Counted from the first letter of the stretch, positions 18,516 to 59,584 are shown. The stretch: 64,000 nucleotides of DNA from Acidimicrobium ferrooxidans (GCA_020723485.1 DYIU01000001.1:757850-821849), one strand, 5' to 3'. A program made the numbers and translations. The notes: generated by a model from the sequence alone, not told the origin.

Positions 18516-18939
18516 GACTTTCGTGGACACGAATGTGCTGGTCTACGCCTACGACCGCTCACACGCCGGAAAGAACGAGACCGCGAGGTCGCTGGTGGCC
18601 GACCTGTGGGCCTCGGGCCTGGGAGTGTTGAGCACGCAGGTGCTCCAGGAGTTCTTCGTCACCGTCACGGCGAAGGTGCCGCGACCCCTCAAGATCGAGA
18701 AAGCACGCGAGATAGTGCGCGACCTCCTCAGATGGGAGGTTGTGGTCAATGACGCGGAGTCACTGGTCGGCGCGGCCGACCTGCAGAAGAGGTACGGGTA
18801 CTCGTTCTGGGACTCGCTCATCATCCGCGCAGCGGTAGAAGCGGGCGCGGACATACTCGTCACGGAGGACCTCGCAGCGGGACAGACCATCGGAGGAGTG
18901 ACCATCAGGAATCCGTTCTCTGGAGGGACAGGTGGCTGA
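18505..18939 (+). CDS. vapC: PIN-domain toxin (VapC-like)
   Basis: 144 aa; PIN acidic residues in the expected order (FVDTNVLVYAYD...E...D..I...A......LVTEDL). Confidence 0.8.
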   Translation: MSGKTFVDTNVLVYAYDRSHAGKNETARSLVADLWASGLGVLSTQVLQEFFVTVTAKVPRPLKIEKAREIVRDLLRWEVVVNDAESLVGAADLQKRYGYSFWDSLIIRAAVEAGADILVTEDLAAGQTIGGVTIRNPFSGGTGG

Positions 18940-19600: not shown

Positions 19601-19679
19601 CTTTAAGAACAGACATAGCGTAACTCCGGTCAACCGTCTATATGGTGCCGACGGCATGACGAAAGTGGTCTGACCCCGG

Positions 19680-22600: not shown

Positions 22601-22856
22601 GTGGGACGAGGTCGAGCTCGCCGGAGCCAGGTCCCTGCTCGACAGGCTCTGCCGGATGGTCGCCTCCGGATGCTTTCCATTCACCGACGACCCCGAGAAC
22701 GACCTGAAGTTCAGCGACTTCACGCCCGCTTTCGGCGACGTCGAAGCCGCCGCCGCCGATATCACCCGCAAGCTCGCCAACCCGGCGAACGAGATGCTCC
22801 GGCCCTACCGCGAGCTGAGAGCTCTCGAGGACGCTTTCGAGGGGGCGGACAAATGA
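19680..22856 (+). CDS. AddB-like PD-(D/E)XK nuclease-family protein (helicase-nuclease partner subunit)
   Basis: 1058 aa, GTG start; no Walker A seen; C-terminal RecB-type nuclease motifs (CPLEYFFRYVLKV, GRIDRIDEL, AVWDYKTGS, QNALYLEL); stop overlaps the start of the downstream UvrD-like gene. Confidence 0.65.
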   Translation: MYNGPVSYSINRLVQNLRDLCADRVLNEKWLIAPSRRVGMQWLDAVARSGQPVLNFRVKTLPALALELASQAMVDRGLELISGIRHRVLTARLYAGLSGGSREYLSGLEASRGLADTLARVLGELRRAGLGSSDLEPRRFEVPAKGRAVKALLAAYERELESAGLVDYPGSLRLAIARLESGAGVTGGQALMMIPDFLEVELRGLESRLWQALPEGERLVLASDAAGDVDRTGTNASLLACIRSPADAPEPTGIDGTLQIFRAVGEVNEVREVLRRCVERGIPFDDVEILHTDSATYVPLIFELCCRLKPEDPASIPVTFYEGVASTYSRPARALLGWLNWISEGYPQSALVDMVTDGLLRFGIDDSLSMSFARLGAILRAVPIGGGRDRYLPAIDRALGALNMQIVDEEEPVGAEDETCSPEERSARISSLRERAAGLEALRETAAGLLSLSPDKRATQESILLGARSFIDRFARRVNEFDQYCYRRLSDEIEAAAGCFEGGDVQGFDPAAWLEALPADTAVEGKGPRPGCLYVSNVRGGGHSGRGHTFIIGLDDTRFPGTGRQDPLLLDAERSRISDELPTGAGRLSREVDDLARTMAGLRGNVTLGYSCRSLEDDRELFPSPVVVSAFRLIGRRDGDQKDLARWAGHPASFAPSDPDRCIDSTEWWLSRTCGDVLAEGLELATSVSFPNLGRGFVARAARSGDDFTEYDGYVPEAGAECDPASPGGPTLSASRLETLAKCPLEYFFRYVLKVEPPEEFEIDPAVWLDRARRGELLHSAFREFMTHLTEKGLKPDFNRDLPLIMRVLDEEVARWEARLPAPSTVVFESEKRELCRISRIFLQEEHEHCMGNRPVYFEASIGLEPEGEGCPLDCESGVEIELPGGRSIRVRGRIDRIDELPSEGAPRFAVWDYKTGSMYGYSREDPFRQGRHLQNALYLELAAARLAELHPGARVVSFGYFFPGTRAHGARIVWDEVELAGARSLLDRLCRMVASGCFPFTDDPENDLKFSDFTPAFGDVEAAAADITRKLANPANEMLRPYRELRALEDAFEGADK

Positions 22857-25800
22857 CGACAGGTCCGAATCCCCCGCCCGACCAGCACGAGAGGGACCGC
22901 ATCCAGAACGGGCTCCACGCCTGCATGCTGGTGGAAGCAGCTGCGGGAACGGGAAAGACCACCAGCATGGTCGGGCGCATGGTCGAGCTTCTGAAGAGCG
23001 GCACCTGTGCCGACATAAGGACTCTGGCCGCGGTCACTTTCACCCGCAAGGCCGCCGCCGAACTGCGGGCCCGCTTCCAGGTCACGCTCGAGAAGGCGGC
23101 CCACGAGTCTTCCGGAGAAGAGCGCGCCAGGCTCGAGAGGGCCCTGGCCAACGTCGAGCAGTGTTTCGTCGGAACGATTCACTCCTTCTGCGCGCGGCTG
23201 CTTCGCGAGCGCCCGGTGGAGGCCGGTGTCGACGTCGAGTTCGAGGAGATAGACGAGGACGCCGACGCGCTGCTCCGCACAGAGGCGTGGAGCGAGCACT
23301 GCGCGCGGCTGATCGCCGATGACGGCGAAGGGATCGTGTCAGAGCTGAGCCGTCTCGGCATACAGCTGTCCGACCTCGAGCAGGCGTTCAAGACGTTCGT
23401 GCTCTACCCCGACGTCGTGCGCTGGCCGATGCCGGCGGAGAGCCGGGACCTCGAAGGTCTCGAGGAGGCCGCGGCGGCTCTCGACGATTACATCGAGCAC
23501 ATGCGAGCTCTGGCCCCTGGTCTTCCTGAAGACTGCGGTCGGGACACCCTGATCCCCGCTTTTCGCAGCCTGCCGCGCGTGGTCTCCCACTACGAGGACC
23601 TGGGTGATCCCGCGCAGCTGATGGAGGTTCTCGAGCAGCACTTCAACAGGGGCGTCAGGGTGATACAGAAGGTCTGGGCACAGGCCGGCTACGCTCCCGA
23701 AGACGCCAAGGCCGAGGGCACGCGGTGGGCCGATTTCCAGGCGCAGGTCGTGAGCCCGCTCGTCCGCGCGTGGCGCGAGGCCCGGTACAGGCCGGTGATG
23801 AGGGTGCTGTTCCAGGCGCGTGAGCTGTACGACCTCAAGCGCTCAGAGCGCGGCCAGCTCAACTTCCAGGACCTGCTCATGAAGGCGGCGGGCCTCCTCC
23901 GGGGCAATCCGCACGTCAGGCGGTACTTCAGCCAGCGCTTCACCCACCTGCTGGTGGACGAGTTCCAGGACACAGACCCGATCCAGGCCGAGGTCATGGT
24001 CCTGCTCGCTTCCGCGAGCTTCGACGAGACTGACTGGAGAAAATGCCGGCCGAGGCCGGGCTCGCTGTTCGTAGTGGGTGATCCCAAGCAGTCGATCTAC
24101 CGCTTCCGCAGGGCTGACATTGTCACCTACAACGAGGTGAAAAACCTCATCCTCTCACCGGGCTCGGAGGGCGAGCCCGGCGAGCTGGTGCGGCTCTCCG
24201 CCAACTTCCGGACGGTCAGCCCCCTCGTCGAATGGGTGAACTCCACTTTTCAGCCCGTGGACGACACGGATGCCGCCGACGGGGGCGTAATGACCCGCTT
24301 CTGCTTGGAAGAGTCCGCCGAGTCGCCGTCATACGTTCCCCTCGGGGTCGGCCGCCGGGAAGGCAGCGCCGGCGAACTGGTGGGGGTCTGCACGCTTCTC
24401 ATAGATGAAGAGGCGGGCAACCGCGACGAGGCAACCGCATTCGAGGCCGACTTTATAGCCCGGTTCATACGCGCCGCCATTGACGACGGTGTCGCGGTGC
24501 CGCGGACCGTCGAACAGCTGGAGGCGGGGCAGGAGGCAGCTGCCGGCCCCTCCGATTTCATGATAGTCACCCGGTACCGCTCCGGCCTGAGCGTCTACGC
24601 CGCGGCCCTTCAACGGTACCGCATCCCACACCAGGTCACCGGCGGCACGGCGCTGAACGAGGTCTCCGAGCTCAAGCTCCTGCAGGCGTGCCTGCGCGCG
24701 GTCGCCCGTCCGGACGACCCCGTTGCGCTCCTGTCTGCGCTGCGGGGCGAGGCGTTCGGAGTGAGCGATGCCTCGCTATACAGGTTCAAGGCGGCGGGCG
24801 GCAGGTTCAACTACAACTCTCCCTTGCCCGAAGAGCTCCCGCCAGGCGATCTCGAAGCGTTCACCGACAGCTTCGCGAGACTCCAGAAATACCACCGTTG
24901 GCTCTCGAGCCTCCCGGCGGTCTCGGCCATCGAGAACGTAGTCTCTGACCTCGGGCTCGCGGTACTGGCGAGCGCGCGCGAGGGCGGTGACGTCGAGGCG
25001 GGCAGCCTGGGGAAGGCCGTCGAGCTGGTCAGGTCCGTTGCCCGGAGCGAGTGGTCGACCGTCAAGCTCGTTCAGTTCCTCGGCCAGATAGTGGACATGG
25101 AGCAGAAGTACGACGGCGTCTCCGCGAGCTCGCGGGAGGTCCCGGCCGTCAGGCTCATGAACCTGCACAAGGTGAAAGGCCTGGAAGCCCCGGTCGTCTT
25201 CCTTGCCAATGCGTTCGGGGAAGGGGCGCACGACGTAGGTCTGTTCGTGGACCGTTCGGGCGAGGAGGTCCACGGGTACATGGCGGTCCGCGGGGCGAGA
25301 AGAGGACGGGCCGCAGGGCCGCTCCTGGCTCACCCGGAAGGTTGGGACGAGCTGGCCGCGAAGGAGTCGGCTTTCACGACCGCCGAGGAGCTGAGGCTCA
25401 GGTACGTGGCCGCGACCAGGTCGGGCTCGATGCTCGTCGTCACCGAGAGGCCGAAGTCCAACAGGTGGAACGCCTGGCGGCATTTCCTGCCGGTGCTGCC
25501 TGGCGACCGTTTCCTCGAGGACGCCGGCGAGCGAGCCGCGCCGGCACGGCGGAGAACCGCCCTCTCCGCCGCTGACGCTTCCGCCGCGGTCGAGGCCCTG
25601 GCTTCGCGACTCGCCACGGCGGAAGCACCGACTCACGCGGTGAGCCCGGCAAAGGAGCTGGCCCTCTCGACCCCCGGGAAGACGGCGGCACCGCCGTCCC
25701 CGGACACCGGGGACGTGCCGCCGTTCGCGGACGGCGAGCACGGTGTCGAGTGGGGACAGGCGGTCCACCAGCTCCTCGAGCTGGCCATGCGCGAGCCCGG

Positions 25801-26212
25801 GGCTGATCTTAATGCCGCGGCGCGTGCCCTGCTCGAAGAGAACGGCATTGACCCGTCACATGTCCCGGTCGCGGTCGAGACCGCATTATCAGTGGTAGCG
25901 TCGGACACCTGGAAAAGAGCAGAGAACTCGACCCGAAGACTCTCCGAGGTCCCGTTCGAGATGGTGCTGGAGGACAGGGAACCGCCTACTCTGGTAAGGG
26001 GGGCGATAGACCTCGTCTTCGCCGAGAACGGGGGGTGGGTGCTGGTCGATTTCAAGACGGACCTGGTGTCGGATGCCGGCACTGCCGCGCTCGCGGAGAG
26101 GTACAGGCCCCAGCTCGCGCTGTACAGGCAGGCATGGGAGCGGTGCACCGGCGAGGAGGTCAACGAGTGCGGTATCTTTCTGACCCGTACTGGCCGGTAC
26201 GTCACGACTTGA
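22853..26212 (+). CDS. UvrD/AddA-like helicase-nuclease
   Basis: ATG at 22853 (MTTGPNPP) inside the longer ORF from 22412; Walker A AAAGTGKTT; UvrD motif Ia-like AAVTFTRKAAAELR; C-terminal PD-(D/E)XK nuclease (GAIDLVFAENGGWVLVDFKTD...QLALYRQAW). Confidence 0.8.
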   Translation: MTTGPNPPPDQHERDRIQNGLHACMLVEAAAGTGKTTSMVGRMVELLKSGTCADIRTLAAVTFTRKAAAELRARFQVTLEKAAHESSGEERARLERALANVEQCFVGTIHSFCARLLRERPVEAGVDVEFEEIDEDADALLRTEAWSEHCARLIADDGEGIVSELSRLGIQLSDLEQAFKTFVLYPDVVRWPMPAESRDLEGLEEAAAALDDYIEHMRALAPGLPEDCGRDTLIPAFRSLPRVVSHYEDLGDPAQLMEVLEQHFNRGVRVIQKVWAQAGYAPEDAKAEGTRWADFQAQVVSPLVRAWREARYRPVMRVLFQARELYDLKRSERGQLNFQDLLMKAAGLLRGNPHVRRYFSQRFTHLLVDEFQDTDPIQAEVMVLLASASFDETDWRKCRPRPGSLFVVGDPKQSIYRFRRADIVTYNEVKNLILSPGSEGEPGELVRLSANFRTVSPLVEWVNSTFQPVDDTDAADGGVMTRFCLEESAESPSYVPLGVGRREGSAGELVGVCTLLIDEEAGNRDEATAFEADFIARFIRAAIDDGVAVPRTVEQLEAGQEAAAGPSDFMIVTRYRSGLSVYAAALQRYRIPHQVTGGTALNEVSELKLLQACLRAVARPDDPVALLSALRGEAFGVSDASLYRFKAAGGRFNYNSPLPEELPPGDLEAFTDSFARLQKYHRWLSSLPAVSAIENVVSDLGLAVLASAREGGDVEAGSLGKAVELVRSVARSEWSTVKLVQFLGQIVDMEQKYDGVSASSREVPAVRLMNLHKVKGLEAPVVFLANAFGEGAHDVGLFVDRSGEEVHGYMAVRGARRGRAAGPLLAHPEGWDELAAKESAFTTAEELRLRYVAATRSGSMLVVTERPKSNRWNAWRHFLPVLPGDRFLEDAGERAAPARRRTALSAADASAAVEALASRLATAEAPTHAVSPAKELALSTPGKTAAPPSPDTGDVPPFADGEHGVEWGQAVHQLLELAMREPGADLNAAARALLEENGIDPSHVPVAVETALSVVASDTWKRAENSTRRLSEVPFEMVLEDREPPTLVRGAIDLVFAENGGWVLVDFKTDLVSDAGTAALAERYRPQLALYRQAWERCTGEEVNECGIFLTRTGRYVTT

Positions 26213-30802: not shown

Positions 30803-31363
30803 ATGGCGCTTACGTACGGCACAGACGAGTGGGAGCAGGCATACGTAGCCGAGGTCGCGGAGAGGCAGAAGGCACCGCGGCCCTACATCGCTTTCAGCCC
30901 GGAGTGGATAGGGCTCTACGAGAAGGCTGTGCAGGAAGACGCCCTTTACAAGGAAGCCGCCGCGACCTGGGAGGGCTCGGTCGTGCTCCACGTGCTGGCG
31001 GCCCCCGAGGTCGGTATCGACGAGGACCTGTACCTGTTCATGGACCTGTGGCACGGCGACTGCCGTTCGATGCGGCTCGTTCCCAAGGAGGCCGGCGAGG
31101 CGGGCGACTTCGTCATCACCGGCTCGATGGAGCGCTGGCTTCAGGTGTCCAGGAAGCAGCTCGATACCGTCAAAGGGATGATGCAGGGCAAGCTCAAGCT
31201 CAAGGGCGACCTGCCGACCATCGTCCGCGCGGTGAAGGCGGCGTCGCGGCTCGTCGACATCGTCGCCGACATGGATTCCATCTATCCCGACGAACTGACC
31301 CCGGAGCAGATAGAGGAGCTCAGGGGCTGGATAGTGCCCCTCCGCGAGAAGTTCGGCGTCTGA
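30803..31363 (+). CDS. SCP2 (sterol-carrier-protein-2) domain protein
   Basis: ATG at 30803 with AAGGAGGG upstream; C-terminal SCP2-like motif (MMQGKLKLKGDLPTIVRAV). Confidence 0.65.
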   Translation: MALTYGTDEWEQAYVAEVAERQKAPRPYIAFSPEWIGLYEKAVQEDALYKEAAATWEGSVVLHVLAAPEVGIDEDLYLFMDLWHGDCRSMRLVPKEAGEAGDFVITGSMERWLQVSRKQLDTVKGMMQGKLKLKGDLPTIVRAVKAASRLVDIVADMDSIYPDELTPEQIEELRGWIVPLREKFGV

Positions 31364-31536
31364 ACACGACTTTTCAGACAGGCGGGGCATCCTCCAGGTG
31401 TCCCGCCTGTACAGCATCAGCGACCACACGGAGGCGCCCGGGGAAGGCCCCTCCGGCTGAGAACACGTGAGCCCCGTGCCGGCGTCCACGGGACGGGGGC
31501 CTCATAACGTCCCCGGCCAACAACGGGAGGTATGAG

Positions 31537-32700
31537 ATGGCTTACGACAGAGACCTTTCATTCGTCTACCGCAATCCCACCAAGCTGGTATTCGGTGAGA
31601 ACAGCGCGAAGGACGTCGGCATCGAGGTGGGCGAACTCGGGTGCAGCAAGGCGTTCCTGGTCACGGACCCCGGCCTCGTCGAGACCGGGCTGCCCGAGAT
31701 CATCGTAAAGGCGCTCGGCAATAAGTACGCCGGAACGTTCGACCAGTGCATACAGGACTGCGGGCTTCACATCATAAACGAGGCCGCGGAGGTGGCGAAG
31801 GCCGCCGGCGCGGACTGCCTCGTGAGCCTCGGTGGGGGCAGCACGATAGACACTGCCAAAGGGATGGCGATCCTCATCAAGGAGGGCGGCAGGATAGAGG
31901 ATTACGCGGGGCTACAGATGCTGACCCGCCCGCAGACGCCGCACATCGCCATTCCGACCACGGCGGGGACCGGCAGCGAGGTCACCTACGCCTTCGTGGT
32001 CAAGGACTGGGAAAAGAACCAGAAGCTCATCTTCGCCGACACGTTCGTCATACCGAACATCGGCATCCTCGACCCGACGCTCACGGAGGGCCTGCCGCCC
32101 GGCCTCACGGCCACCACCGGCATGGACGCCATGACCCACGCTGTGGAGGCCATCCACGCGCTGCAGGCCATGCCCATGTCCGATGCCATGGCGATGCATG
32201 CGATCAGGCTCATCATGGAGTACCTCCCCACCTGTGTCGAGAACGGCACCGACTTGTTCGCGCGCGGCCAGCAGCAGATAGCCGCGACGATGGCGGGCAT
32301 CGCCTTCGGCAATGCGCAGATCGGCATGGTGCACGCGATGGCGCACAGCGTAGGCGGCCTGTTCAAGGTGCCGCACGGGCTGGGGAACAGCATCCTGCTC
32401 CCGCACGTGATGCTCTACAACATGGACGAGTGCGCGGACCGCTACGCGATGGTGGCGGACGCCATGGGCCTGGACACCAAGGGCATGAGCGACCTTGAGG
32501 CCAGCGAGGCAGCGGCGAACGCGATATGGGACCTGACCAGGAAGATGGGCGTTCCCCAGAAGCTGAGCGAGGTAGGCGTGCCCGAGGACGGGCTCGACGC
32601 GGCGGCCGACCTGGCGCTCTCGGACGGCTCCATAGTGTACAACCCGAAGCTCATCTACGAGACGGACCAGATACTCGAGGTCTACAAGAAGGCCTACTAG
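31537..32700 (+). CDS. Iron-containing (group III) alcohol dehydrogenase
   Basis: GGGAGG RBS; Fe-ADH sequence (GGGSTIDTAKGMAI...; metal-ligand His in HAMAHSVGG and GLGNSILLPHV). Confidence 0.85.
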   Translation: MAYDRDLSFVYRNPTKLVFGENSAKDVGIEVGELGCSKAFLVTDPGLVETGLPEIIVKALGNKYAGTFDQCIQDCGLHIINEAAEVAKAAGADCLVSLGGGSTIDTAKGMAILIKEGGRIEDYAGLQMLTRPQTPHIAIPTTAGTGSEVTYAFVVKDWEKNQKLIFADTFVIPNIGILDPTLTEGLPPGLTATTGMDAMTHAVEAIHALQAMPMSDAMAMHAIRLIMEYLPTCVENGTDLFARGQQQIAATMAGIAFGNAQIGMVHAMAHSVGGLFKVPHGLGNSILLPHVMLYNMDECADRYAMVADAMGLDTKGMSDLEASEAAANAIWDLTRKMGVPQKLSEVGVPEDGLDAAADLALSDGSIVYNPKLIYETDQILEVYKKAY

Positions 32701-32744
32701 AGTCATTTCATCGACCACGCAGTAGATAGTTGGGAGGGTAAGAG

Positions 32745-33269
32745 ATGGTAACGTACCTGGTGGGCGCGCTGCTCGTAGCCCTGGGCGGAATCGCAATCGT
32801 CCTGATAATCGCGAGTTCCAAGGCGGAGGTGGGCTCAGGCGGAACGGGCGAGCTCGACGTCACGATGGCGGAGGGCGTAGAGGATAACGGCATGGCGGTG
32901 ATGCTGGCCGAGATGATAAAGACCAACCTCACCAACAAGCCCGAGAGGGTCAAGGACTTCAACAAGCTCAAGGGCACCGTCTGGATCACGGCCGAGGACG
33001 CCGACGTCGAGATGACGATGGATTTCAACAAGGGGAGCCTGACAGTGCGCGACGGGAAAGTCGGTAAGCCGATCCTCGCTATCTCGACAGACTCCGCGAC
33101 CCTCATGGACCTCGCCAACATAGACATAAAGTTCGGCATGCCCTATTACTTCGACGAGACGGGGATGATGGTCATCAAGAAGCTGCTCAAGAGGGAGCTC
33201 AAGATCAAGGGCCTGCTCACGCATACCATCGCCCTGACCTACATGACCAAGATAATGTCGGTGAAATAG
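32745..33269 (+). CDS. Membrane-anchored SCP2-like domain protein
   Basis: N-terminal TM helix (LVGALLVALGGIAIVLIIA) then SCP2-like region ending KRELKIKGLLTHTIAL. Confidence 0.6.
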   Translation: MVTYLVGALLVALGGIAIVLIIASSKAEVGSGGTGELDVTMAEGVEDNGMAVMLAEMIKTNLTNKPERVKDFNKLKGTVWITAEDADVEMTMDFNKGSLTVRDGKVGKPILAISTDSATLMDLANIDIKFGMPYYFDETGMMVIKKLLKRELKIKGLLTHTIALTYMTKIMSVK

Positions 33270-33339
33270 CAGCGGGCCGTCCCGCGTATGCGCGCGGGGA
33301 ACGGACCCGGCCGTAAGCCGAGAACGAGGGGGGACTCGA

Positions 33340-35196
33340 ATGTACGGCAATACCGGAAAGGTGCTCGACGTCGATCTGACGTCCGGGGAGATCAACGTTA
33401 TCGAGCTCGACGAGGATACTTACCGCCAGTACGTGGGGGGCACGGGCCTCGCCGCCAGGCTGCTTTACGACCACGGCGACCTCGAGGCGGGCCCTCTCGA
33501 CCCCGGGAACCTCTTCATCGTGGCCATCGGACCGATGCAGGACACCGGGATGTACGGCACCAGCCGGTTCTCGGTTGGCGCCCGCTCTCCTCTGACCGGT
33601 GTCTGGGGCCAGGCCAGCTGCGGCGGCGACTTCGGCCCGGAACTCAGGCGCTGCGGCTACGACGCGGTTATCTTCAGGGGCAAAGCCTCCGAGCCGGTCT
33701 ACCTTCTCATCGAAGAATCAGAGGCTTCACTCCAACCCGCCGGCGACCTCTGGGGCAAGGACACCTACGTGGTCGACGACGAGCTCAAGGCAAAGCACAG
33801 CAAGCAGCACAGGATAATGGTCATCGGCCCCGCCGGCGAGAACGGCGTGCTCTTCGGCAGCATCGCCAACAGCAAGGGCCACCATGCCGGCCGCTCGGGA
33901 ATGGGCACGGTCATGGGCTCGAAGAACCTCAAGGCGGTCTGCGCGAAGGGCAGCATGAAGCAGGAGTACGCCGACCCCGAGGGCCTCAAGTCTTTCTGGC
34001 AGGACACGGTCCGGCCGCAGATGGACGAGAGCATCTACTGCCAGACTGTCGGAGCTTTCGGAACGGCTGCCAACATGGAGATGAAGATGATCGAGGGCGA
34101 CGTGCCCACCAAGAACTTCCTGGTCGGCTCCTGGGAAGAGGGCCCCGAGACCCTGAGCGGCATCGCGATGGCGGACACTATCCTGACAGGCCGGGAGACC
34201 TGCCGCGGCTGCGGAATCCGCTGCAAGCGGGTGGTGAAGATAGAGGAAGGCCCGTACGCGATAGGCGAAGGCCCGGGGCCGGAGTACGAGACCATCGGCA
34301 CGTTCGGCACGATGCTCATGAACCCCAACCTCGAGGCCGTGGCGAAGGCCAACGACCTGTGCAACCGCCTGGGGATGGACACCATGACCTGCGGGTCGAC
34401 GATCGCCTGGGCCATGGACTGCTTCGACCGAGGCATGTTGAAGCCGGAGGACTGGGACGGCATAAAGCTGGAGTGGGGCGAGATAGATCCTGTCATCGAC
34501 CTCGTCCAGAAGATCGCCGTGCGCGAGGGCAAGCTCGGCGAGCTGCTCTCCAGGGGCTCCGCGAAAGCCGCCGCGGAGGTCGGCAACGGGAGCGAGGAGC
34601 TGCTGACGACCAGCAAAGGCCTCGAGTCTCCCATGCACGACCCGCGCTGCAACTGGGGCGACGGCCTGGCTTACGCTACCTCAGTCCGAGGCGCGTGCCA
34701 CGTCTCCAACCTCATGTTCCTGCTCGAGTGGGGGGCCCTGGACTTCCCGGAGATAGGGGTAGACCACATACTCGACCCGATGGGAACCGAGTACAAGGCG
34801 GACGGGGCCGCGAAGATGCACGATATCGGGTGCATCACGAACTCTGCGTGCTGGTGCCAGTTCCCCTCGCAGGCTCTCAGTCTCCCCCAGTGGGTCGAGG
34901 CGTTCAACCTGGTCACCGGCTGGGGTTGGGACATCGACGAGTTCATGAAGACCGGCGGCCGCATATGGTTCCTGCAGCGCTGCCTCGGTCACATCTGGGG
35001 CGCGACCGCTGAAGACGACGTCATGGGCGCCAGGAGCATGTACCCGACCGAGGACGGCATGATCGCGGGCTCGGTGCCCGACATGGACACCATGCTCAAG
35101 GAGTTCTACGAGCTGCGGGGCCTGGACTCCGACGGCAAGCCGACGGAAGAGACCCTGAAGGACTACGGCCTCGACTTCCTCATCGGCAAGATCTGA
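33340..35196 (+). CDS. aor: Aldehyde:ferredoxin oxidoreductase (tungsten-pterin AOR family)
   Basis: 618 aa; AOR N-terminal domain (MYGNTGKVLDVDLTSGEINVIELDEDTYRQYVGGTGLAARLLY) and conserved Cys-containing Fe-S/pterin region (CRGCGIRCKR). Confidence 0.85.
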   Translation: MYGNTGKVLDVDLTSGEINVIELDEDTYRQYVGGTGLAARLLYDHGDLEAGPLDPGNLFIVAIGPMQDTGMYGTSRFSVGARSPLTGVWGQASCGGDFGPELRRCGYDAVIFRGKASEPVYLLIEESEASLQPAGDLWGKDTYVVDDELKAKHSKQHRIMVIGPAGENGVLFGSIANSKGHHAGRSGMGTVMGSKNLKAVCAKGSMKQEYADPEGLKSFWQDTVRPQMDESIYCQTVGAFGTAANMEMKMIEGDVPTKNFLVGSWEEGPETLSGIAMADTILTGRETCRGCGIRCKRVVKIEEGPYAIGEGPGPEYETIGTFGTMLMNPNLEAVAKANDLCNRLGMDTMTCGSTIAWAMDCFDRGMLKPEDWDGIKLEWGEIDPVIDLVQKIAVREGKLGELLSRGSAKAAAEVGNGSEELLTTSKGLESPMHDPRCNWGDGLAYATSVRGACHVSNLMFLLEWGALDFPEIGVDHILDPMGTEYKADGAAKMHDIGCITNSACWCQFPSQALSLPQWVEAFNLVTGWGWDIDEFMKTGGRIWFLQRCLGHIWGATAEDDVMGARSMYPTEDGMIAGSVPDMDTMLKEFYELRGLDSDGKPTEETLKDYGLDFLIGKI

Positions 35197-35206
35197 GTAA
35201 TAACCT

Positions 35207-35286
35207 GGGGTCACGTCATATTTTATTACCGGCGGTCACGCGTGCCTCGATAATCGGCACCAGGTAATAAAATTAGACGTGACCCC
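35207..35286. repeat. 80-bp palindromic element (24-bp arms GGGGTCACGTCATATTTTATTACC, 32-nt loop) between convergent genes
   Basis: Left arm 35207-35230 and right arm 35263-35286 are reverse complements with one or two mismatches; shares the GGGGTCA-GTCA 5-prime core with the element family found further downstream. Confidence 0.7.
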
Positions 35287-35289
35287 ATC

Positions 35290-36282
35290 TTATGACACGC
35301 TGTAGTAAGCGGTCTCACCGCGGAGCTCGCTTCCCACCCTGCGTTCGCTCTCGAGTATGACCAGGTGGCCGAAGACCTCCCGCATGCCCAGGAAGATGTT
35401 CTCCACGGTGTTCTCGGCCTCGATGTCCGCAAGCATGTCGAAGGTGAGCTCGATGACCGTCTTCTCCCCGTCCCCGAGCGCGCCCTCGATGAAACGCAGT
35501 CGCTCATCGTGGTGTGCGAGCACCTCCTCGACCCGCCTGCTGAAGTCCTCGATGCAGTCACCGTGACCCGGGAGCGCCAGGCGGACGTCCAGGCCCCTCA
35601 GCTTCTCGAGGGACCTGATGTAGTCGGGAAGGCCGCTCCGCTGTTCGCTCTGCCATGGGGGGTACATGTCGGGGTTCGGCGTGATGGTGTTGAGCAGCAT
35701 GTCGCCGGTGAAAAGGAGCTTCTGCGCCCTAAGGTAGAGGCAGATGTGGTCTATCGAGTGGCCGGGCGTGTGGATTACCTCGAGGTCGAACGGTTCGCCC
35801 TCCAGTATGTCTCCTTCCTCTACAGGCCTGTCGACGGCCACCCCTTCCGCTACCACGTCCCACTGGGAACTGGTCAGCGCCGTTGTTTTCACCAGCTCGC
35901 GGTCCAGCCCCATCAGCGGCGACATCCCTATCAGGTACTCGCGCAGGCGGACGGCCTCCTCCCTGTAGCTTCCGACCGGCCCGAGCCCGAGACGGTGACA
36001 GACCACCTCCGCGCCGCCCTCGGCCTTGAACCGTGCGGCTAGGCCCATGTGGTCGGGGTGGTGATGCGTGACGATTATCCTCTGGATGGAGGCCGGCGGG
36101 TGACCAAGCTCCGATAGCGTGCGCGGGATGGTCTCGGTGACTTCTTCCATGATGGGGCCGGTGTCGATGAGCGTCACCGGCTCGCCCTCGATGAGGTACA
36201 GGTTGACGGGCTGGACCGTGTAAGGTATCTCGAAGTGGAGCTTCCGGATGCCACCAGTGATATCGACTATCTCACGCTTCAA
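35290..36282 (-). CDS. MBL-fold metallo-hydrolase
   Basis: TTG start at 36282 with GGAGG upstream; metallo-beta-lactamase motif IIVTHHHPDHMG. Confidence 0.8.
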   Translation of the reverse strand: MKREIVDITGGIRKLHFEIPYTVQPVNLYLIEGEPVTLIDTGPIMEEVTETIPRTLSELGHPPASIQRIIVTHHHPDHMGLAARFKAEGGAEVVCHRLGLGPVGSYREEAVRLREYLIGMSPLMGLDRELVKTTALTSSQWDVVAEGVAVDRPVEEGDILEGEPFDLEVIHTPGHSIDHICLYLRAQKLLFTGDMLLNTITPNPDMYPPWQSEQRSGLPDYIRSLEKLRGLDVRLALPGHGDCIEDFSRRVEEVLAHHDERLRFIEGALGDGEKTVIELTFDMLADIEAENTVENIFLGMREVFGHLVILESERRVGSELRGETAYYSVS

Positions 36283-36379
36283 ACCCGGCCTCCGTTTCCT
36301 CCTGCCCCGCTCGCCATAGCGTATCAGAGTGGGCGGGTCGCCGCGCCGCGGGGTACGATCCTAAAACCTCGAAATCGTA

Positions 36380-36433
36380 TTGACACCATTGTCACATGCG
36401 GATAGAATCCCTGGCAAGTGAGTGCTCACTCAC
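36380..36433 (+). promoter_or_regulatory. Canonical sigma70-type promoter plus palindromic operator upstream of a TetR gene
   Basis: TTGACA (36380-36385), 17-nt spacer, TAGAAT (36403-36408); palindrome GTGAGTG-CT-CACTCAC (36418-36433) sits at the predicted transcription start. Confidence 0.6.
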
Positions 36434-36458
36434 CTGGGATGTGGAGGCGCAGGTGCCC

Positions 36459-37064
36459 ATGAAAGCGGAGCCGGAAACGGCACAGGAAACAGAATCGGCA
36501 AGGGGTCCCCGTTACAACGAAATCCTGACGGCCTCGATAGAGGTCTTCTCGAGGACGAACTACGAGAAGGCCACCACGGCACTGCTCGCTAAGGAAGCCG
36601 GGATCGCAGAGGGAACCCTGTACAGGTACTTCCCCACCAAGAAGGACCTCTTCCTCGAGTGCTTCCGCTACATAACGAACCAGATGGTCGAACGGTACAT
36701 CGATGTCTACAGGAGGGTCGGCCAGGACCCGCGCTCGTACCTGATAGAGGTCGCGAAGAGCTACTTCGAGTTCCTCCAGGAGAACCCGAGCATGCGGCTC
36801 TTCATGGCGTTCGTCCTCAACAACTCCTTCGACCAGGATTTCCGCGACGAGCTCGACAGGTTCGTGATGTTCAACGTCAACGCGACGGAGCGCATGCTCA
36901 GGCTCGCCATCGAGAAGGGGGAGATCCGCGATGACATCAACCCCAGGGTCGGGGCGTGGTTCTTCGTCGGCGGTTATTTCACCCTGATACTCATGTCCGA
37001 GCTGGACGCCGACGACTTCAAGCACCCCGACTTCATGGATGACCTCTTGAAGCTGTTCCTGTGA
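36459..37064 (+). CDS. TetR-family transcriptional regulator
   Basis: ATG at 36459 inside the longer ORF from 36396; helix-turn-helix region TTALLAKEAGIAEGTLYRYFPTKKDLF. Confidence 0.8.
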   Translation: MKAEPETAQETESARGPRYNEILTASIEVFSRTNYEKATTALLAKEAGIAEGTLYRYFPTKKDLFLECFRYITNQMVERYIDVYRRVGQDPRSYLIEVAKSYFEFLQENPSMRLFMAFVLNNSFDQDFRDELDRFVMFNVNATERMLRLAIEKGEIRDDINPRVGAWFFVGGYFTLILMSELDADDFKHPDFMDDLLKLFL

Positions 37065-37109
37065 GGTCCCACGGCCTGACGGGCGACCGGTCCGCATAGG
37101 GAGGATTGT

Positions 37110-38840
37110 ATGACGAGTGACGAGTTGACCATCCTCAAGAACAAGGTCCTGCTTGGGGCGAGGCTCGCCAGGTCGCTGCTGCTCTTCTTCATCGATGAGT
37201 ACAGGCGTGGGACGCTCCTCGAGAACCTCAAGAGCATCAGGCAGGCCAGGGGCATATCGGTGGCCGTGGACATGTCACACGCCGACCTGCTGGAGGAGAA
37301 GTCCGCCAGGCCGCGGCTCGCCGGCAAGGTGTTCCTCCGGTTCAAGGACGAGTCGTTCACCTACAGGCAGATGGACGAGAACGCGAACCGGCTGGCGAAC
37401 TACCTCGCGGGCATGGGCGGAGGGTGGGGCGTCGGGCTCGCCATAATGATGAAGAACTCCCCCCGCTGGCTCGACGTGTTCTTCGGGCTGGAGAAGCTCG
37501 GCATGTACCTCGTCCCGGTGAACATCGCGCTGCGGCAGGACCAGCTCGCTTACATCCTCGACAACTCCGAGGCCTCGATACTCGTGATAGACCACGACCT
37601 CCTGGACCATTACCGTGCTGTCGCGGACAGGGTGCCGGGCATCAGGCAGGTGATAGTGAACACCGAGCGTGCCCCGGAGGACTACCGTGTCCCGGACGGC
37701 ATGGAAAGCCTGCAGGCCGCGTACGGCCCCGGTTCGAGCACGGAAAGGCCGCCCACCCGCGCCAACCCGGACGACCTGTGTATCATCATGTACACATCCG
37801 GCACGACGGGCCTCCCCAAGGGAGTCGTCTACCGCTACAATTCCACCAGCGTGAAGCCGCTCGCCATCATGACCCGGCTGCTGATGTCGTCGGACGACGT
37901 CGCGTATACTTGCTATCCTCTCTTCCACGCCAACGCCCTCTTCCTGACGGTCACCACCGGCCTCCACGCCGAGGCGAGCATGGCGCTGGCCGAGAGGTTC
38001 AGCGCGAGCCGCTTCTGGGACGACATGAGGCGATATCACGTGACGACCTTCAACGGGCTGGGCGCGGTGATGCCGATACTGATGAAACAGCCGCGGAAAC
38101 CCGATGACGCGCGCAACGACGTCAGGGTGGTCCTCGCAGCAGGCTGCCCCGCGGAGATCTGGCGCGGCTTCGAGGAGCGCTTCGGTTTGACCATTTTCGA
38201 GGGCTACGGCGCGGTCGACGGCGGCAGCACCGTCATCATGAACGTCGGGACCGCGCCGGTCGGCTCGATGGGAAGGCCGATAGGGTCCAGGGTGCGCATC
38301 ATCGATTCAGAGGGCCGAGACTGCCCGCCGGGCACGCCCGGGGAGCTCATCTGCGAGGTGGGAAGGAAGAAGAGCTCCGTCGAGTACTTCAAGAACAGGG
38401 ACGCCACCAGCGACAAGGTCCGCGACGGCTGGCTGTACACCGGCGACCTGGTCTACGCGGACGAGGACGGCTACATCTACTTTGTGGGCAGGAACACGGA
38501 ATCGATGCGCTGCAAGGGAGAGAACGTCTCCGCCTACGAGGTCGAGCACGCCATCATGCAGCACCCGGACGTGCTTGAGTGCGCCGTGTACGCGGTACCC
38601 TCCCAGCTCGCCGAGGACGAGATAATGACGACGCTCGTGCCCGTCGAGGGCAGGAGCATAGACCCCTACACGATGCCGGCGTTCCTGTCCGAGAGGCTCG
38701 CGAAGTTCGCGGTCCCGAGGTACTACAGGGTCGTGGAGAGCCTGCCGAAGACCGAGACCCACCGCGTGATCAAGAAAGAGCTGGAAAAGCTCGGAGTCAC
38801 CGGGGACACATACGACGCGGACGCCGTGTCCGCGAAATAG
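37110..38840 (+). CDS. AMP-forming acyl-CoA synthetase / fatty-acid-CoA ligase
   Basis: AMP-binding motif YTSGTTGLPKGV; C-terminal adenylate-forming domain (TGDLVYADEDGYIYFVGR); GGGAGGA RBS. Confidence 0.85.
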   Translation: MTSDELTILKNKVLLGARLARSLLLFFIDEYRRGTLLENLKSIRQARGISVAVDMSHADLLEEKSARPRLAGKVFLRFKDESFTYRQMDENANRLANYLAGMGGGWGVGLAIMMKNSPRWLDVFFGLEKLGMYLVPVNIALRQDQLAYILDNSEASILVIDHDLLDHYRAVADRVPGIRQVIVNTERAPEDYRVPDGMESLQAAYGPGSSTERPPTRANPDDLCIIMYTSGTTGLPKGVVYRYNSTSVKPLAIMTRLLMSSDDVAYTCYPLFHANALFLTVTTGLHAEASMALAERFSASRFWDDMRRYHVTTFNGLGAVMPILMKQPRKPDDARNDVRVVLAAGCPAEIWRGFEERFGLTIFEGYGAVDGGSTVIMNVGTAPVGSMGRPIGSRVRIIDSEGRDCPPGTPGELICEVGRKKSSVEYFKNRDATSDKVRDGWLYTGDLVYADEDGYIYFVGRNTESMRCKGENVSAYEVEHAIMQHPDVLECAVYAVPSQLAEDEIMTTLVPVEGRSIDPYTMPAFLSERLAKFAVPRYYRVVESLPKTETHRVIKKELEKLGVTGDTYDADAVSAK

Positions 38841-38856
38841 AGCTGGAGACACATAG

Positions 38857-40101
38857 ATGAGCGACAACGTGTACGTGGCGGACGTGGTGATGACGCGTTT
38901 CGACAAGCACCCGGACAAGAGCATAAAGCAGTTGACCGCCGAGGCGGTGAACGCGCTGCTGCAGTCGTCCGGCGTGGACGTTAAGGACCTCGAGGCGGCC
39001 TGGTTCTCGAACTCCGGGTGGGGCCTGAGCCAGACACAGCACTGCATACGGGGCCAGGTCGCGCTCGCGCCGATAGGGATACAGGGGCTCCCCATAACGA
39101 ACGTCGAGAACGCCTGCGCCGGGGGCTCGACCGCGATACATTCGGCCTGGACCGCAGTGAAGGCCGGGCTCTACGACCTTGTGCTCGCGGTAGGGGCTGA
39201 AAAAGTCTACTTCCCCCAGGACCGGAAGAAGATGTTCGAGGGTTTCATGTCAGGCACCGACGTCGAGTTCGCCCAGTCGATGATCGAGATGATGAAGGCG
39301 GACGCGAAGAAAAAGGCCGAGGAGGCCGGGGCGTCGGGCGAGGAGAAGAAGGGCGGGCACTCCGCGTTCATGGACATCTACGCCATGGGCGCCAGAATGC
39401 ACATGAAGGCGTACGGCACCACCCAGCGCCAGCTCGCCGTCATCGCCGCCAAGAACAGGGCCAACGGGGCGCTGAACCCGCTCGCGCAGTTCCAGCACGA
39501 GATGAGCGTCGAGGAGGTCCTCGCCGACGTGCAGGTCGCCTACCCGCTGACCAGGGCCATGTGCGCGCCCATCGGTGACGGCGCGGCCGCGGCGCTCATC
39601 GCGAGCGAGAGGGGCCTTAAGAAGCTCGACGGCGCCAGGCCGGCTCTCGTCAGGGCGTCCATGCTGGCGTCCGGGTCGCTGCCCGGAAGCGGGCTCGAAG
39701 GCATCAGCCGCAGGCTCAGCCAGGCCGCGTACGAGAAGTCGGGGCTCGGCCCGGAGGACATCGACGCGGTGGAGGTACACGACGCCACCGCGTTCGGCGA
39801 GCTCCTGCAGTGCGAGGACCTGGGCCTCTGCCCGGTCGGTGAGGGAGGGCCCTACGCGGAGTCCGGCGCAACCAGCCTGGGCGGAAAGCAGCCGGTGAAT
39901 CCTTCCGGCGGCCTGGAATGCCGCGGGCACCCAATAGGGGCTTCAGGCATCGCCCAGGTCTACGAGCTCGTGACCCAGCTCCGCGGCGAGGCCGGGCGGC
40001 GGCAGGTGGAGGGCGCCCGCGTGGCGATGGCCGAGAACGGCGGCGGCTTCATCGGGGTGGGCGAAGCCGCCATGTGCATACACATACTGGAAAAGGTCTG
40101 A
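38857..40101 (+). CDS. Thiolase-like protein, SCPx/lipid-transfer-protein type
   Basis: Thiolase active-site Cys context (ITNVENACAGGSTAI); C-terminal thiolase region (GGLECRGHPIGASGIAQV); overall layout like non-specific lipid-transfer-protein thiolases. Confidence 0.8.
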   Translation: MSDNVYVADVVMTRFDKHPDKSIKQLTAEAVNALLQSSGVDVKDLEAAWFSNSGWGLSQTQHCIRGQVALAPIGIQGLPITNVENACAGGSTAIHSAWTAVKAGLYDLVLAVGAEKVYFPQDRKKMFEGFMSGTDVEFAQSMIEMMKADAKKKAEEAGASGEEKKGGHSAFMDIYAMGARMHMKAYGTTQRQLAVIAAKNRANGALNPLAQFQHEMSVEEVLADVQVAYPLTRAMCAPIGDGAAAALIASERGLKKLDGARPALVRASMLASGSLPGSGLEGISRRLSQAAYEKSGLGPEDIDAVEVHDATAFGELLQCEDLGLCPVGEGGPYAESGATSLGGKQPVNPSGGLECRGHPIGASGIAQVYELVTQLRGEAGRRQVEGARVAMAENGGGFIGVGEAAMCIHILEKV

Positions 40102-40161
40102 GCAGGGCAGTTAAATCGGGGTCAGGCCTGGATTCAAGGCCCCTCGAGTCAGGAGTCCGGA

Positions 40162-41415
40162 TTGAAGAAGTGGCCCCTACTGGTTGCGCTGGCCGCCGGC
40201 GAGGCGGCGAGGCGGTTGCTGCGCACCGCCCCGGGTCCCGTGTCGCCGAAGTACCCCGACTTCGTGCCGGACGACTACCCCCCGCTGCTGTTCGAGGTGC
40301 CGACGGGTGACGGCCTGGTACTGCGGGGCAAGAGGTACGAGAACCCGGGAGCGACGCCGCTCATACTGATGGCCGGGTTCAGCGGAAACGGGTTCAACTA
40401 CGACATCGCCTTCGAAGAGACCAATTTCGCCCTTCACATGGCCCGCCGGGGCTACGACGTGTGGGTGGCCAATTTCCGCGCGACGGGCAGGAACCCGTAC
40501 AGGAGCGATTCCGGGGATTACTCGCACCACATCCAGGACCTGTGCGTCTACGACGCCCCCGCGCTCGTGGCCGCGGTAACAGAGAGGACCGGGATGAAGC
40601 CGGTCATATTCGGGCACAGCATGGGTGGGGTCGTGTGCTACGGGTACCTGCAGGGAGCGGACTACGAGGTGGACGGCGCAGTGCGCCGCCTTGTCTCGGA
40701 TCCCGACCTCGCGCGTGAGCGGAACGAGGCGGTGGCCGGCGTGGTCTCCCTGGCCGGCCCGGCGAGCTTCTACTGGCCGAAGGACTCCAGGTACTACTGG
40801 CTGGTCGCGAGCCCGGTGTCGAGGCTGTTCCTGAGGGCTTTCAGGGCACTGCTCCTGCGCTTCTCGACCAACCCGCGGCCGGTGCCGGTCGAGGACTCGG
40901 TAGTCGGGCTCATCCGGCGCGCGCCGAGGCTCGCCTACCTGGTCCTGAGGGCGGGCTACTCCTTCTTCGCCAATCTCGAGAACATGGACCCGGAGATGCT
41001 CATGGAGTCGGCGGCGTCCGGGATGAGCGACGTATCCGCGAGCGAGCAGTGCCAGCTGGTGGAAGCGCTCCTGACCGGGGACCTCGTCTCGCGACGGGTC
41101 GACGGCGCCGACGGCGGAGAGCCCCACAACCTGACAAGGCACATGCACATGATAACCGCGCCCATACTCTTCGTCGCCGCCGAGCTCGATGCGGTGAACC
41201 CGGCGGTGCTCTACCGCGACGGCTTCGAGCAGGTGGGAAGCCGGACGAAGTATTTCAAGTGCTTCACCGGGTACGGCCACGTCGACCTGATCCAGGGATA
41301 CGGGATAGGAGACACCGTCATTCCATACGTGGCGCGCTGGCTGGAGAAGGTGCTCGGAGACCAGCCGGATTCAAAGGGAGCTGTCGATGGCGCTTATGAA
41401 AAGGTCGGGGAATAA
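40162..41415 (+). CDS. Alpha/beta-hydrolase fold protein
   Basis: TTG start with AGGAG RBS; nucleophile elbow GHSMGG; length and layout typical of alpha/beta hydrolases. Confidence 0.7.
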   Translation: MKKWPLLVALAAGEAARRLLRTAPGPVSPKYPDFVPDDYPPLLFEVPTGDGLVLRGKRYENPGATPLILMAGFSGNGFNYDIAFEETNFALHMARRGYDVWVANFRATGRNPYRSDSGDYSHHIQDLCVYDAPALVAAVTERTGMKPVIFGHSMGGVVCYGYLQGADYEVDGAVRRLVSDPDLARERNEAVAGVVSLAGPASFYWPKDSRYYWLVASPVSRLFLRAFRALLLRFSTNPRPVPVEDSVVGLIRRAPRLAYLVLRAGYSFFANLENMDPEMLMESAASGMSDVSASEQCQLVEALLTGDLVSRRVDGADGGEPHNLTRHMHMITAPILFVAAELDAVNPAVLYRDGFEQVGSRTKYFKCFTGYGHVDLIQGYGIGDTVIPYVARWLEKVLGDQPDSKGAVDGAYEKVGE

Positions 41416-44976: not shown

Positions 44977-44986
44977 ACGCAAAATC

Positions 44987-45008
44987 GGGGTCAGGTCACT
45001 TTGTTGCG
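44987..45008. repeat. Solo 22-bp arm of the GGGGTCAGGTCA element family
   Basis: GGGGTCAGGTCACTTTGTTGCG, 11 bp after the ACAD stop; no partner arm within 100 bp. Confidence 0.7.
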
Positions 45009-45047
45009 TTTCCTGGACAGGATCGAAAGGACGGGCGGGAGGACACA

Positions 45048-46176: not shown

Positions 46177-46249
46177 GGGTCAGGTCACTTGTTGCATTTC
46201 TTACTCTGAACTTGGCGGAGGATACAAGTGCAACAAGTGACCTGACCCC
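46177..46249. repeat. Full palindromic element of the GGGGTCAGGTCA family (20/21-bp arms, 32-nt loop)
   Basis: Arms GGGTCAGGTCACTTGTTGCA (46177-46196) and TGCAACAAGTGACCTGACCCC (46229-46249) are reverse complements; lies in the 85-bp gap between the ferredoxin and SDR genes. Confidence 0.8.
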
Positions 46250-46267
46250 GATGTGCAGGGAGGTGCA

Positions 46268-47119
46268 ATGGGTTACAGCGACATCCCGCGCACGGCGGTC
46301 ATAACCGGGGCCGGCTCGGGCCTGGGGAGGGCGATGGCGCTTACCCTGGCCCGGGAGGGCTTCAGGGTCGGAGCGGCCGACATCGACCTCGAGAGCGCCC
46401 GGGAGACCGTGGAGATAGTGCGCCGCGCCGGCTCTACAGGTGAGGCGGTCTCCTGCGACGTACGGTCCCACGACGCAGTCCACGCGCTGGCCGACCATTT
46501 CTTCGACGAATGGGGAGAGGTAGGCATAGTGGCGAACAACGCGGGCGTAGCCGACGTCGGCCACGTCGGTGACATCCCCATGCACTGCTGGCAGCGGACT
46601 ATCGAGACCAGCCTCTGGGGAGTCATCTACGGGTGCCACGCGTTCCTCCCCCGCATGAAGGCCAGCGGCGCCGGCCACATCATCAACACTGCTTCGGCCG
46701 CCGGCTTCATGAACATGCCCGAGATGGCGCCCTACAATATCGTCAAGGCGGGGGTCATCTCGCTGTCCGAGACGCTCAGGGTCGAGCTGACCCCGTTCGG
46801 CGTCGGCGTGACCGTCCTGTGCCCCAGCTTCATCGCGACTAACCTCGACAGGACCGCGACTGTCACCGACCCGTGGCAGGGCGAGCTGGTGACCGCCCTC
46901 TTCCAGAACGCGAAGGTCACCCCCGGCCAGGTCGCGGAGGCCACGCTGAAGGCGGTCAAGCGCAACCGCCTCTACGTGGTCCCCCAGTTCACCCCCAGGT
47001 GGGGCTGGAGGTTGAAGAGGTTGAATCCCGGAGCTTTCACCGCCGGCTTCGCCGCGGCCTACAACGCCCCCTTCGGCAAGCGCGTTGCCATGTTCTTCGC
47101 CCGCCGGGGGATGATATAG
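46268..47119 (+). CDS. Short-chain dehydrogenase/reductase (SDR)
   Basis: ATG at 46268; cofactor motif AVITGAGSGLGRAMA; NNAG motif (VANNAGVADVG). Confidence 0.8.
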   Translation: MGYSDIPRTAVITGAGSGLGRAMALTLAREGFRVGAADIDLESARETVEIVRRAGSTGEAVSCDVRSHDAVHALADHFFDEWGEVGIVANNAGVADVGHVGDIPMHCWQRTIETSLWGVIYGCHAFLPRMKASGAGHIINTASAAGFMNMPEMAPYNIVKAGVISLSETLRVELTPFGVGVTVLCPSFIATNLDRTATVTDPWQGELVTALFQNAKVTPGQVAEATLKAVKRNRLYVVPQFTPRWGWRLKRLNPGAFTAGFAAAYNAPFGKRVAMFFARRGMI

Positions 47120-55998: not shown

Positions 55999-56163
55999 GA
56001 GCAAGGGGTCAGACCACTAACGTCACGTCCCCAGCAGCAGTACTAGCCGCTGACGCCCGTTTTCGGAGTAATGCCGTTGAATTCGCCGGTGCGCAATATG
56101 ACGAAACCGGCCTGACCCCATCTGGTATACTGACGCGAGTGTCACCAAACACGGGAGGGCCCA

Positions 56164-59570: not shown

Positions 59571-59584
59571 CGTGATGCAACACT

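Follow-up and report, generated by a model that had tools for sequence, protein, structure and literature searches.

Correia elements of Neisseria and similar MITEs such as ERIC and RUP are small palindromic intergenic repeats with inverted ends of ~26 nt, and repeats of the Correia type fold in mRNA, where they can terminate or stabilize transcripts. Inverted pairs of DUS/USS sequences serve as terminators; they are built on a short core that occurs singly or inverted, with variable loops, downstream of genes, and that comes in taxon-specific "dialects." In high-GC Gram-positive bacteria, factor-independent bidirectional terminators take the form of stem-loops without a clear U-tract. The REP unit of Escherichia coli is a short imperfect palindrome in its own right and is preceded by a conserved GTAG-like tetranucleotide. 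REP-RAYT systems number tens to hundreds of copies in a genome and include a cognate RAYT gene that lies between REP units of its own kind. REPINs join REPs of a single group around a poorly conserved spacer, no two being identical (PMC3337134). They are intergenic hairpins of 80 to 110 nt that leave no target duplication, are accompanied by decaying singlets, and have A/T-rich flanks suggestive of use as terminators (PMC3337134). In a survey of RAYTs, the groups tied to abundant REPs were those studied in Escherichia and Pseudomonas, and Actinobacteria were not mentioned (PMC5581495).

The window (the whole 64-kb stretch of DNA that was analyzed) contains an 80-nt palindrome at 35207-35286, as a sequence-only reading had proposed and as both our reading of the sequence and a repeat finder agree. 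It lies between an aldehyde:ferredoxin oxidoreductase (AOR) gene (33340-35196, + strand; Pfam AFOR_N and AFOR_C, E values of 1e-72 to 1e-109) and a gene for a metallo-beta-lactamase-fold (MBL) hydrolase (35290-36282, - strand; Lactamase_B, E value of 5e-29). The 3′ ends of both genes abut the element, which fills most of the 93-nt spacer between their convergent stop codons (AOR TGA on the + strand, MBL TAA on the - strand), a placement that had likewise been recognized from the sequence. We consider the element to be a diverged, REPIN-like noncoding repeat, probably an old insertion that has been kept as a hairpin, that is predicted to act as a bidirectional terminator, and that belongs to a family putatively spread by an HUH enzyme, and we assign this reading a probability of about 0.6.

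The left arm, GGGGTCACGTCATATTTTATTACC (35207-35230, + strand), begins with the core GGGGTCAsGTCA and continues into an AT-rich distal part, while the right arm (35263-35286, - strand) has GGGGTCACGTCTAATTTTATTACC as its reverse complement. The 32-nt loop between them (35231-35262) is unique in sequence and holds the further small palindrome that had been noticed there, CACGCGTG, at 35237-35244. Pairing extends over 22 of the 24 arm positions; the two that do not pair, 12 and 13, lie next to each other (AT in one arm versus TA in the other). At both ends of the palindrome the core is GGGGTCACGTC, in which a G-to-C change at position 8 is compensated in the opposite arm. The description of this core as GGGGTCA-GTCA holds for the terminal part at both ends but not for its last base, which differs in the right arm (GGGGTCACGTCT). 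The inverted repeat also reaches further outward, to arms of 34 nt at 85% (35197-35230 and 35263-35296), and the structure is better bounded at 35197-35296. Its outer left flank, GTAATAACCT (35197-35206), lies immediately 3′ of the AOR stop codon and prolongs the inverted repeat; its outer right flank, ATCTTATGAC (35287-35296), runs across the MBL stop codon (TTA at 35290-35292, - strand). As RNA, the element folds at -49 kcal/mol on either strand, with a z score of about -7 and none of 200 shuffles as stable, and as DNA the palindrome folds at -31 kcal/mol. With up to 3 mismatches allowed, the arm is found at only these two sites in the window, against an expectation of 0. The palindrome is far beyond chance. 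In the left arm, GTAATAA in the outer flank and TTATTAC in the inner end are exactly complementary, a perfect 7-bp match of a kind seen at 0.6% of window positions (6 of 7 positions match in the right arm), and this pairing parallels the GCAACA/TGTTGC pairing of the main family in the window. Since the small hairpin that it implies for each arm is not energetically significant in the 35197-35296 element, we treat the complementarity as suggestive only.

That main family, here called A, is represented in the window by three doublets and two singlets with the arm GGGGTCAGGTCAyTTTGTTGCrTTT. The doublets have arms of 24 to 31 nt and loops of 26 to 27 nt that are unrelated in sequence. At 63441-63529, arms of 31 nt are 100% complementary around a 27-nt loop; at 60239-60335, the doublet occupies exactly the space that separates two convergent stop codons; and at 46177-46248, with a ferredoxin gene on one side and an SDR gene on the other, a variant with a 1-nt deletion is common to both arms. 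The singlets, both on the + strand, occupy 44977-45013 (one arm, from 44987, with an outer half-stem and then a U-rich tail) and 59575-59612 (arm from 59585). Both are directly 3′ of a stop codon and upstream of the next gene, and each folds as a 7- to 9-bp stem (GCAACA/TGTTGC) around the core followed by UUU(U), which gives it the look of a small terminator. Two doublets of another arm type, C, have arms of GGGGTCAkACCACTTTCGT(CA); one, at 19561-19677, encloses a 79-nt loop, and the second, more decayed, at 56005-56119, encloses a loop of ~100 nt, with the two interiors unrelated to each other. The 64 kb thus holds five main-family loci, two of type C, and one of the 35197-35296 type.

When up to 1 mismatch is allowed, the window contains the core GGGGTCANGTCA 10 times, compared with an expectation of 1.7, and every one of these sites is at an arm of a family palindrome. 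Each of the window's five long intergenic inverted repeats opens with GGG(G)TCA at both ends. Outside the elements we counted ~49 copies of GGGTCA against an estimated expectation of ~44, which gives no enrichment of the core inside genes. A further hairpin with these ends, GGGGTCATCTCG...CGAGCTGACCCC, is present inside the SDR gene (46253-47119) at 46744-46801, scores 17 bits in the family model described below, and may be due to chance. No doublet at any locus mixes arm types, and minor variants are paired as well (T with T, C with C, and the same 1-nt deletion in both arms). Across the elements, the marks of this lineage-specific superfamily of noncoding palindromes are an invariant GGGGTCA...TGACCCC stem base, a T-rich distal arm that is equal within an element, and a unique loop of ~19 to 32 nt.

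We built a covariance model from the three A doublets and two elements of relatives, leaving the 35197-35296 element out. The model matched 35200-35293 over its full length at 38.4 bits (E value of ~6e-8 by a rough calibration), the sole strong match outside the training set, with the next matches at 17 bits or less. The model also rewards generic long hairpins, at 7 to 21 bits, with 21 bits going to a long palindrome without the core in the relative L026. Since any long hairpin gains from the structure term, it is the excess over such scores that can be attributed to the core and the matching geometry. Models of sequence gave less: an HMM of the A-family arm returned the left arm as its best nonfamily match at an E value of 1.4, with only core positions 1 to 13 aligned, and a full-length sequence-only model scored a nonsignificant 8.2 bits (E value of ~0.2). 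Because the structure model is significant and the sequence-only model is not, it is the GGGGTCAsGTC core and the geometry of the hairpin, and not the sequence of the distal arm, that support membership. The geometry is the same overall, as had been stated, with 24-nt arms, a 32-nt loop, and a span of 80 nt compared with 74 to 80 nt from GGGG to CCCC in the A family. The AT-rich distal arm does depart from A, in that yTTTGTTGCrTTT is not matched and 8 of 24 arm positions differ. At all eight positions, the right arm departs from the A consensus in the same way as the left, and one change, from G-C to C-G, is a double change within the otherwise invariant part of the stem base.

These results bear out the proposal that the element is a diverged relative of the main palindromic element, which is supported by the core, the geometry, the niche, and the covariance-model match. 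The sequence-only reading had itself named a lack of similarity beyond the first 11 bases, together with an absence of other copies from the genome, as grounds for giving that proposal up; past the first ~13 bases, sequence similarity is by itself not significant, which comes close, whereas the match of core and structure is significant. Kinship with the A family is therefore supported on core and geometry. The opposing view would be that a bidirectional terminator evolved locally, without relation to the family, and matches it in its first bases by chance. Such a view would accommodate a distal arm and loop without significant sequence similarity to the main family, as well as the unrelated GC hairpins found at this junction in other relatives, but it has to contend with an exact GGGGTCA at both stem bases, a span within the same 74 to 80 nt, a T-rich distal arm, and a score of 38 bits where generic hairpins reach 7 to 21. 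By our estimate, the heptamer would fall exactly at the stem base with a chance of ~1e-4, and we regard coincidence as highly improbable.

The family appears to be organized in the manner of REPINs, with two inverted REP-like units making up one long hairpin and with singlets as putative decayed remnants. Like the REPINs of Pseudomonas fluorescens SBW25 and the REP/BIME sequences of E. coli, the elements join two inverted units of the same group in one hairpin of 80 to 110 nt around a variable spacer, and the window family shares with them the apparent remnants, the intergenic sites with A/T-rich flanks that hint at a terminator role, and the absence of target duplication. They differ from REPINs in that the conserved part is the stem base GGGGTCAsGTC and not a short, self-palindromic REP. 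No GTAG-like leader is present here, and the arms are not self-palindromic beyond the weak complementarity of outer flank and inner end. The putative unit hairpin has a loop of 17 to 18 nt, one core is common to several arm types, the window family has no RAYT linked to it, the host is an actinobacterium, and the element at 35197-35296 is so far single copy. The element also resembles the palindromic MITEs that have a second role as terminators, but Correia elements duplicate a TA target and have a conserved interior, whereas here there is no duplication and interiors are unrelated. DUS/USS pairs are similar in their short core, single or inverted, with variable loops 3′ of genes; the difference from them is that 24 to 31 nt of arm are conserved within the genome and that the core lacks enrichment inside genes.

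Target-site duplications were absent from all nine doublets inspected, the flanks of the present element being AACCT and ATCTT, and no transposase gene is encoded within the 64-kb window. These observations weigh against the idea that the elements are MITEs with GGGGTCA... terminal inverted repeats on which a DDE transposase acts, such as that of a Tn3-like element or another IS family. Terminal inverted repeats of 24 to 31 nt, small size, and intergenic sites would all suit a MITE, and the inverted repeats of the Tn3 family also start with GGGG, which is a resemblance only. With target-site duplications at 0 of 9 doublets, loops unrelated between copies, no DDE transposase encoded in the window, and singlets that carry their own outer half-stem, however, we find this origin very improbable. 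Two further identities were considered and rejected. The A arms (e.g., AGGTCACTTTGTTGCA at 60254-60269) have the GG-N10-GC spacing and the TTGCA of a sigma-54 promoter, but the "promoters" of a doublet would face its loop, two loci are at convergent junctions, and the 35197-35296 element lacks both dinucleotides; sigma-54 is generally absent from Actinobacteria. An integron attC site is not indicated either, as the sequence shows neither GTTRRRY nor RYYYAAC boxes, nor an array of cassettes.

All eight family loci in the window adjoin at least one gene 3′ end and none is in a divergent spacer, the latter not being statistically significant at n = 8, and two of the eight lie exactly between convergent stop codons. 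The 35197-35296 element, with its very stable folding on both strands, is most likely a bidirectional terminator and 3′-end protector. A consensus terminator scan did not call the element, which has no canonical U-tract, and the usual description of an intrinsic terminator, a GC-rich stem with a small loop and a T-run behind it, does not apply, with a loop of 32 nt instead of 3 to 8 nt and tails that are moderately T rich (ATCTTAT and AGGTTATTA). At gathering thresholds, Rfam had no match anywhere in the window, and at relaxed thresholds it returned one chance match to a microRNA precursor (14 bits against a threshold of 60). Searches of the literature for the core strings found matches only to eukaryotic nuclear-receptor or primer sequences and none that were bacterial. 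The element resembles the bidirectional terminators of high-GC Gram-positive bacteria in its convergent stop codons, its stable stem on both strands, and its weak U-rich tail, and it differs from them in having a stem that is shared with dispersed repeats, is unusually long (24 to 34 bp), and encloses a large loop. A terminator function that can be taken over by other hairpins would fit, because in the closest relative, L019, this place is taken by an ordinary GC hairpin.

By its AOR and MBL homologues, the host is one of the uncultured Actinomycetota, the nearest named group being "Candidatus Geothermincolia," and an 8.2-kb Logan contig from run SRR13164373 is identical to window positions 31181-39441. 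Elsewhere in the window (7933-13977, 18273-18939, and 19680-26212) we observed a 2,014-amino-acid protein with nine TIG domains and DUF5719, a pair of an RHH antitoxin and a PIN toxin, and an AddB/AddA-like nuclease-helicase pair whose called open reading frames overlap by ~440 nt.

We compared the AOR-MBL junction among relatives, for which the MBL tree gives the order (window, L019), L024, (L025, (L020, L028)), L026. The junction is nearly closed in L026 (MBL 67% identical to that of the window), with 2 nt between the MBL and AOR stop codons, and it measures 9 nt in L025 (72%), where TAA-GAATGGGGG-TCA aligns with TAA-GAT-GGGG-TCA of the window. L019 (86%) has a spacer of 92 nt with its ordinary GC-rich hairpin, and L020 (75%) has no family sequence in the 61 nt available. 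A main-family-like doublet together with the main-family outer flank is present in L024 (72%), and in L028 (77%) the contig stops right after TGA-AATGCAACAAC-GGG, inside an element of main-family type. The L028 contig end (L028:1477-1493) falls 14 nt past the MBL stop codon, where an element of that type would begin, and looks repeat induced. At the edge of the palindrome, CATAAGAATGGGGGTCA in L025 (L025:5245-5262) aligns with CATAAGATGGGGTCA in the window and could be either the remnant of a deletion or a preinsertion site. In L009, the AOR stop codon is followed by CCCC-GGCGTTGCA, which resembles a solo element end. L010 was considered as an empty site and then downgraded. Although identity reaches 83% for the AOR, it is only 58% for the convergent MBL-fold gene (L010:2438-3491), which means that the two junctions are not orthologous and that this neighbor either has been exchanged or is a paralogue.

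These junction states suggest that the site was originally empty and probably gained hairpins later. In the tree itself, gain and loss of a family element are equally parsimonious, requiring three gains or three losses. The loop stretch GTCACGCGTGC agrees at 10 of 11 positions with the loop that L024 has in its own element at this junction, a level that 28 of 5,000 shuffles reach and other loops, at 6 to 8 positions, do not. The suggestion of an older, diverged insertion fares accordingly: A-like elements at the same junction in two relatives and the loop match of 10/11 speak for it. We lean toward a single old insertion that diverged in place because of the loop match and the L025 remnant, and consider an old diverged insertion somewhat favored overall.

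Core-bearing hairpins are also found at other sites in relatives. In L009, whose AOR is 85% identical, a perfect doublet lies upstream of the AOR gene (L009:4598-4677), with 27-nt arms, a distal arm of GGGGTCAGGTCTTGAATCTTGAATTTA / TTGAATCTTGAATTTA, and a 26-nt loop; the orthologous spacer in the window (33270-33339) has no element, a difference of presence and absence. L026 (GCA_041890195.1), which is syntenic with the window over 26 to 48 kb, has a 48-nt perfect palindrome, TGGGGTCAGGCACCGTGATGTGAA (L026:1385-1432), downstream of the ferredoxin gene at the site of an A doublet in the window, as well as 27-nt mini-hairpins around GGGGTCAGACCCC at two junctions (L026:2554-2580 and L026:13480-13506), one of which is the site of the window singlet at 44987. 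Its long palindrome without the core (L026:18739-18832) is at a convergent junction. Two of these four L026 hairpins are thus at junctions where the window has main-family elements. Downstream of its thiolase gene, L024 has a minimal hairpin, GGGTCAGGC-TCCG-GCCTGACCC, with a 9-bp stem and a tetraloop, where the window reads GGGGTCAGGCC...; at this orthologous site, window 40111-40184 and L024:46-83 both show short, core-only hairpins on GGGTCAGGC. Given the core hairpins at the L026 and L024 sites, conservation across genera extends to the stem base but not to distal arms or loops.

Conservation of this kind raises the question of whether the hairpins are mobile DNA at all. They might instead be host signals in which GGGGTCAG...CTGACCCC is the site of a termination or RNA-processing factor or of a DNA-binding protein and in which each locus evolves in place, with selection acting on the core and on pairing. 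This would agree with core hairpins of very different sizes at orthologous junctions of the window and of L026 and L024 (MBL 67 to 72%), namely, downstream of the ferredoxin gene, at the ACAD/nitroreductase genes, and downstream of the thiolase gene; with a core that is invariant while distal arms and loops vary and their changes are compensated; and with the lack of target-site duplications and of a transposase in the window. Yet the eight A arms in the window, at unrelated loci, are identical at 20 of ~27 aligned arm positions, well past the 12-nt core, which argues for copying rather than convergence. Presence and absence also vary among close relatives, and an assembly break inside an element is typical of dispersed repeats. 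Host signals evolving in place are, in our judgment, unlikely. A variant that we hold to be still less probable would have a dedicated enzyme or factor of this deep-branching actinobacterial lineage recognize GGGGTCAG...CTGACCCC, with new palindromes arising by fold-back copying of adjacent sequence, such that the present element would have been made locally. Fold-back copying would explain why the distal arms here, in L009, and in L026 are locus specific and yet perfectly or nearly perfectly paired, and it would also explain the unique loops and the varied sizes of core hairpins at orthologous junctions across genera.

If the element belonged to a second subfamily of the same repeat, as had also been suggested, further copies of its arm would be expected elsewhere in the host genome. 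We found no second arm of this type in the 64-kb window or in ~190 kb of relatives' loci; in ~256 kb of sequence, at up to 7 mismatches, there was no other copy besides chance matches selected by the pattern. Exact-pattern scans (GGGGTCACGTCN{1,4}TTTTRTTRC) covered 185,579 GTDB species genomes, JGI metagenome contigs, and IMG/VR, three collections from which the window's own locus is absent. The GTDB genomes gave four pattern matches, all by chance: two are the overlapping ends of one alphaproteobacterial metagenome-assembled genome, one is a clostridial terminator, and one is inside a 699-amino-acid open reading frame of a genome with 45% GC. The three matches in the JGI metagenomes were also by chance, and IMG/VR had none to this arm pattern or to the main-family arm. 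The proposal of a second subfamily is thus without support so far, in the window, in relatives' loci, or in three collections that lack the host genome, and stands unproven, the element being known from one copy to date. A separately propagating lineage with the AT-rich arm would account for the identical derived arm on both sides, as expected if a doublet were copied whole from a master, and arm types do exist as discrete classes (C twice in the window, D in L009, and E in L026). Moreover, of a host genome of at least 1.1 Mb, the search covered only ~64 kb. Set against this are the missing second copy in the window, in relatives' loci, and, by exact pattern, in three public collections, together with a loop similar to the one that a relative's element has at this junction, which points to descent in place. 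We regard a true second subfamily as doubtful.

A candidate for a mobilizing enzyme in the lineage comes from the relative L017, whose AOR is 87% identical. Directly downstream of its AOR gene is a fragment of a RAYT-like Y1_Tnp gene (L017:2365-2764; Pfam Y1_Tnp, E value of 1.6e-7) that scores 50 bits against the NCBIfam model of the REP-associated tyrosine transposase, compared with 25 bits for IS200, has the motif PDHVHLVL, and ends at the contig end. The fragment is preceded by two to three tandem repeats of 37 nt, CCGGGTCTGTAATCCACTTGAGGCGGGTCTCTCAGGC, which are unrelated to the GGGGTCA family and absent from all other sequences compared. A word-indexed search for homologues of this RAYT-like gene found nothing. 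Because the L017 repeats differ from the family, a link between HUH enzymes and the GGGGTCA family is plausible at most.

We can nevertheless outline how the element may have come about if it is a diverged REPIN-like repeat. An ancestor would have acquired it by insertion, probably in a main-family-like form; a copy from an unseen source of this arm type would be the alternative. Since then it would have been kept as a hairpin through selection on pairing or through conversion of one arm by the other. On either transcript, the stem-loop of -49 kcal/mol would end and protect the 3′ ends of the AOR and MBL mRNAs. The family as a whole would have been spread by an HUH enzyme of the RAYT or IS200 type without target-site duplication.

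Taken by itself, the element is one more hairpin repeat between two genes and probably a terminator. The family to which it belongs is apparently an undescribed REP/REPIN-like repeat in a lineage of uncultured Actinomycetota, whose copies break metagenome assemblies, as in L028, and mark the 3′ ends of genes. With a stem-base core that is shared and a stem that covaries, it offers a natural test of mobility versus constraint on pairing versus use by the host as a terminator.
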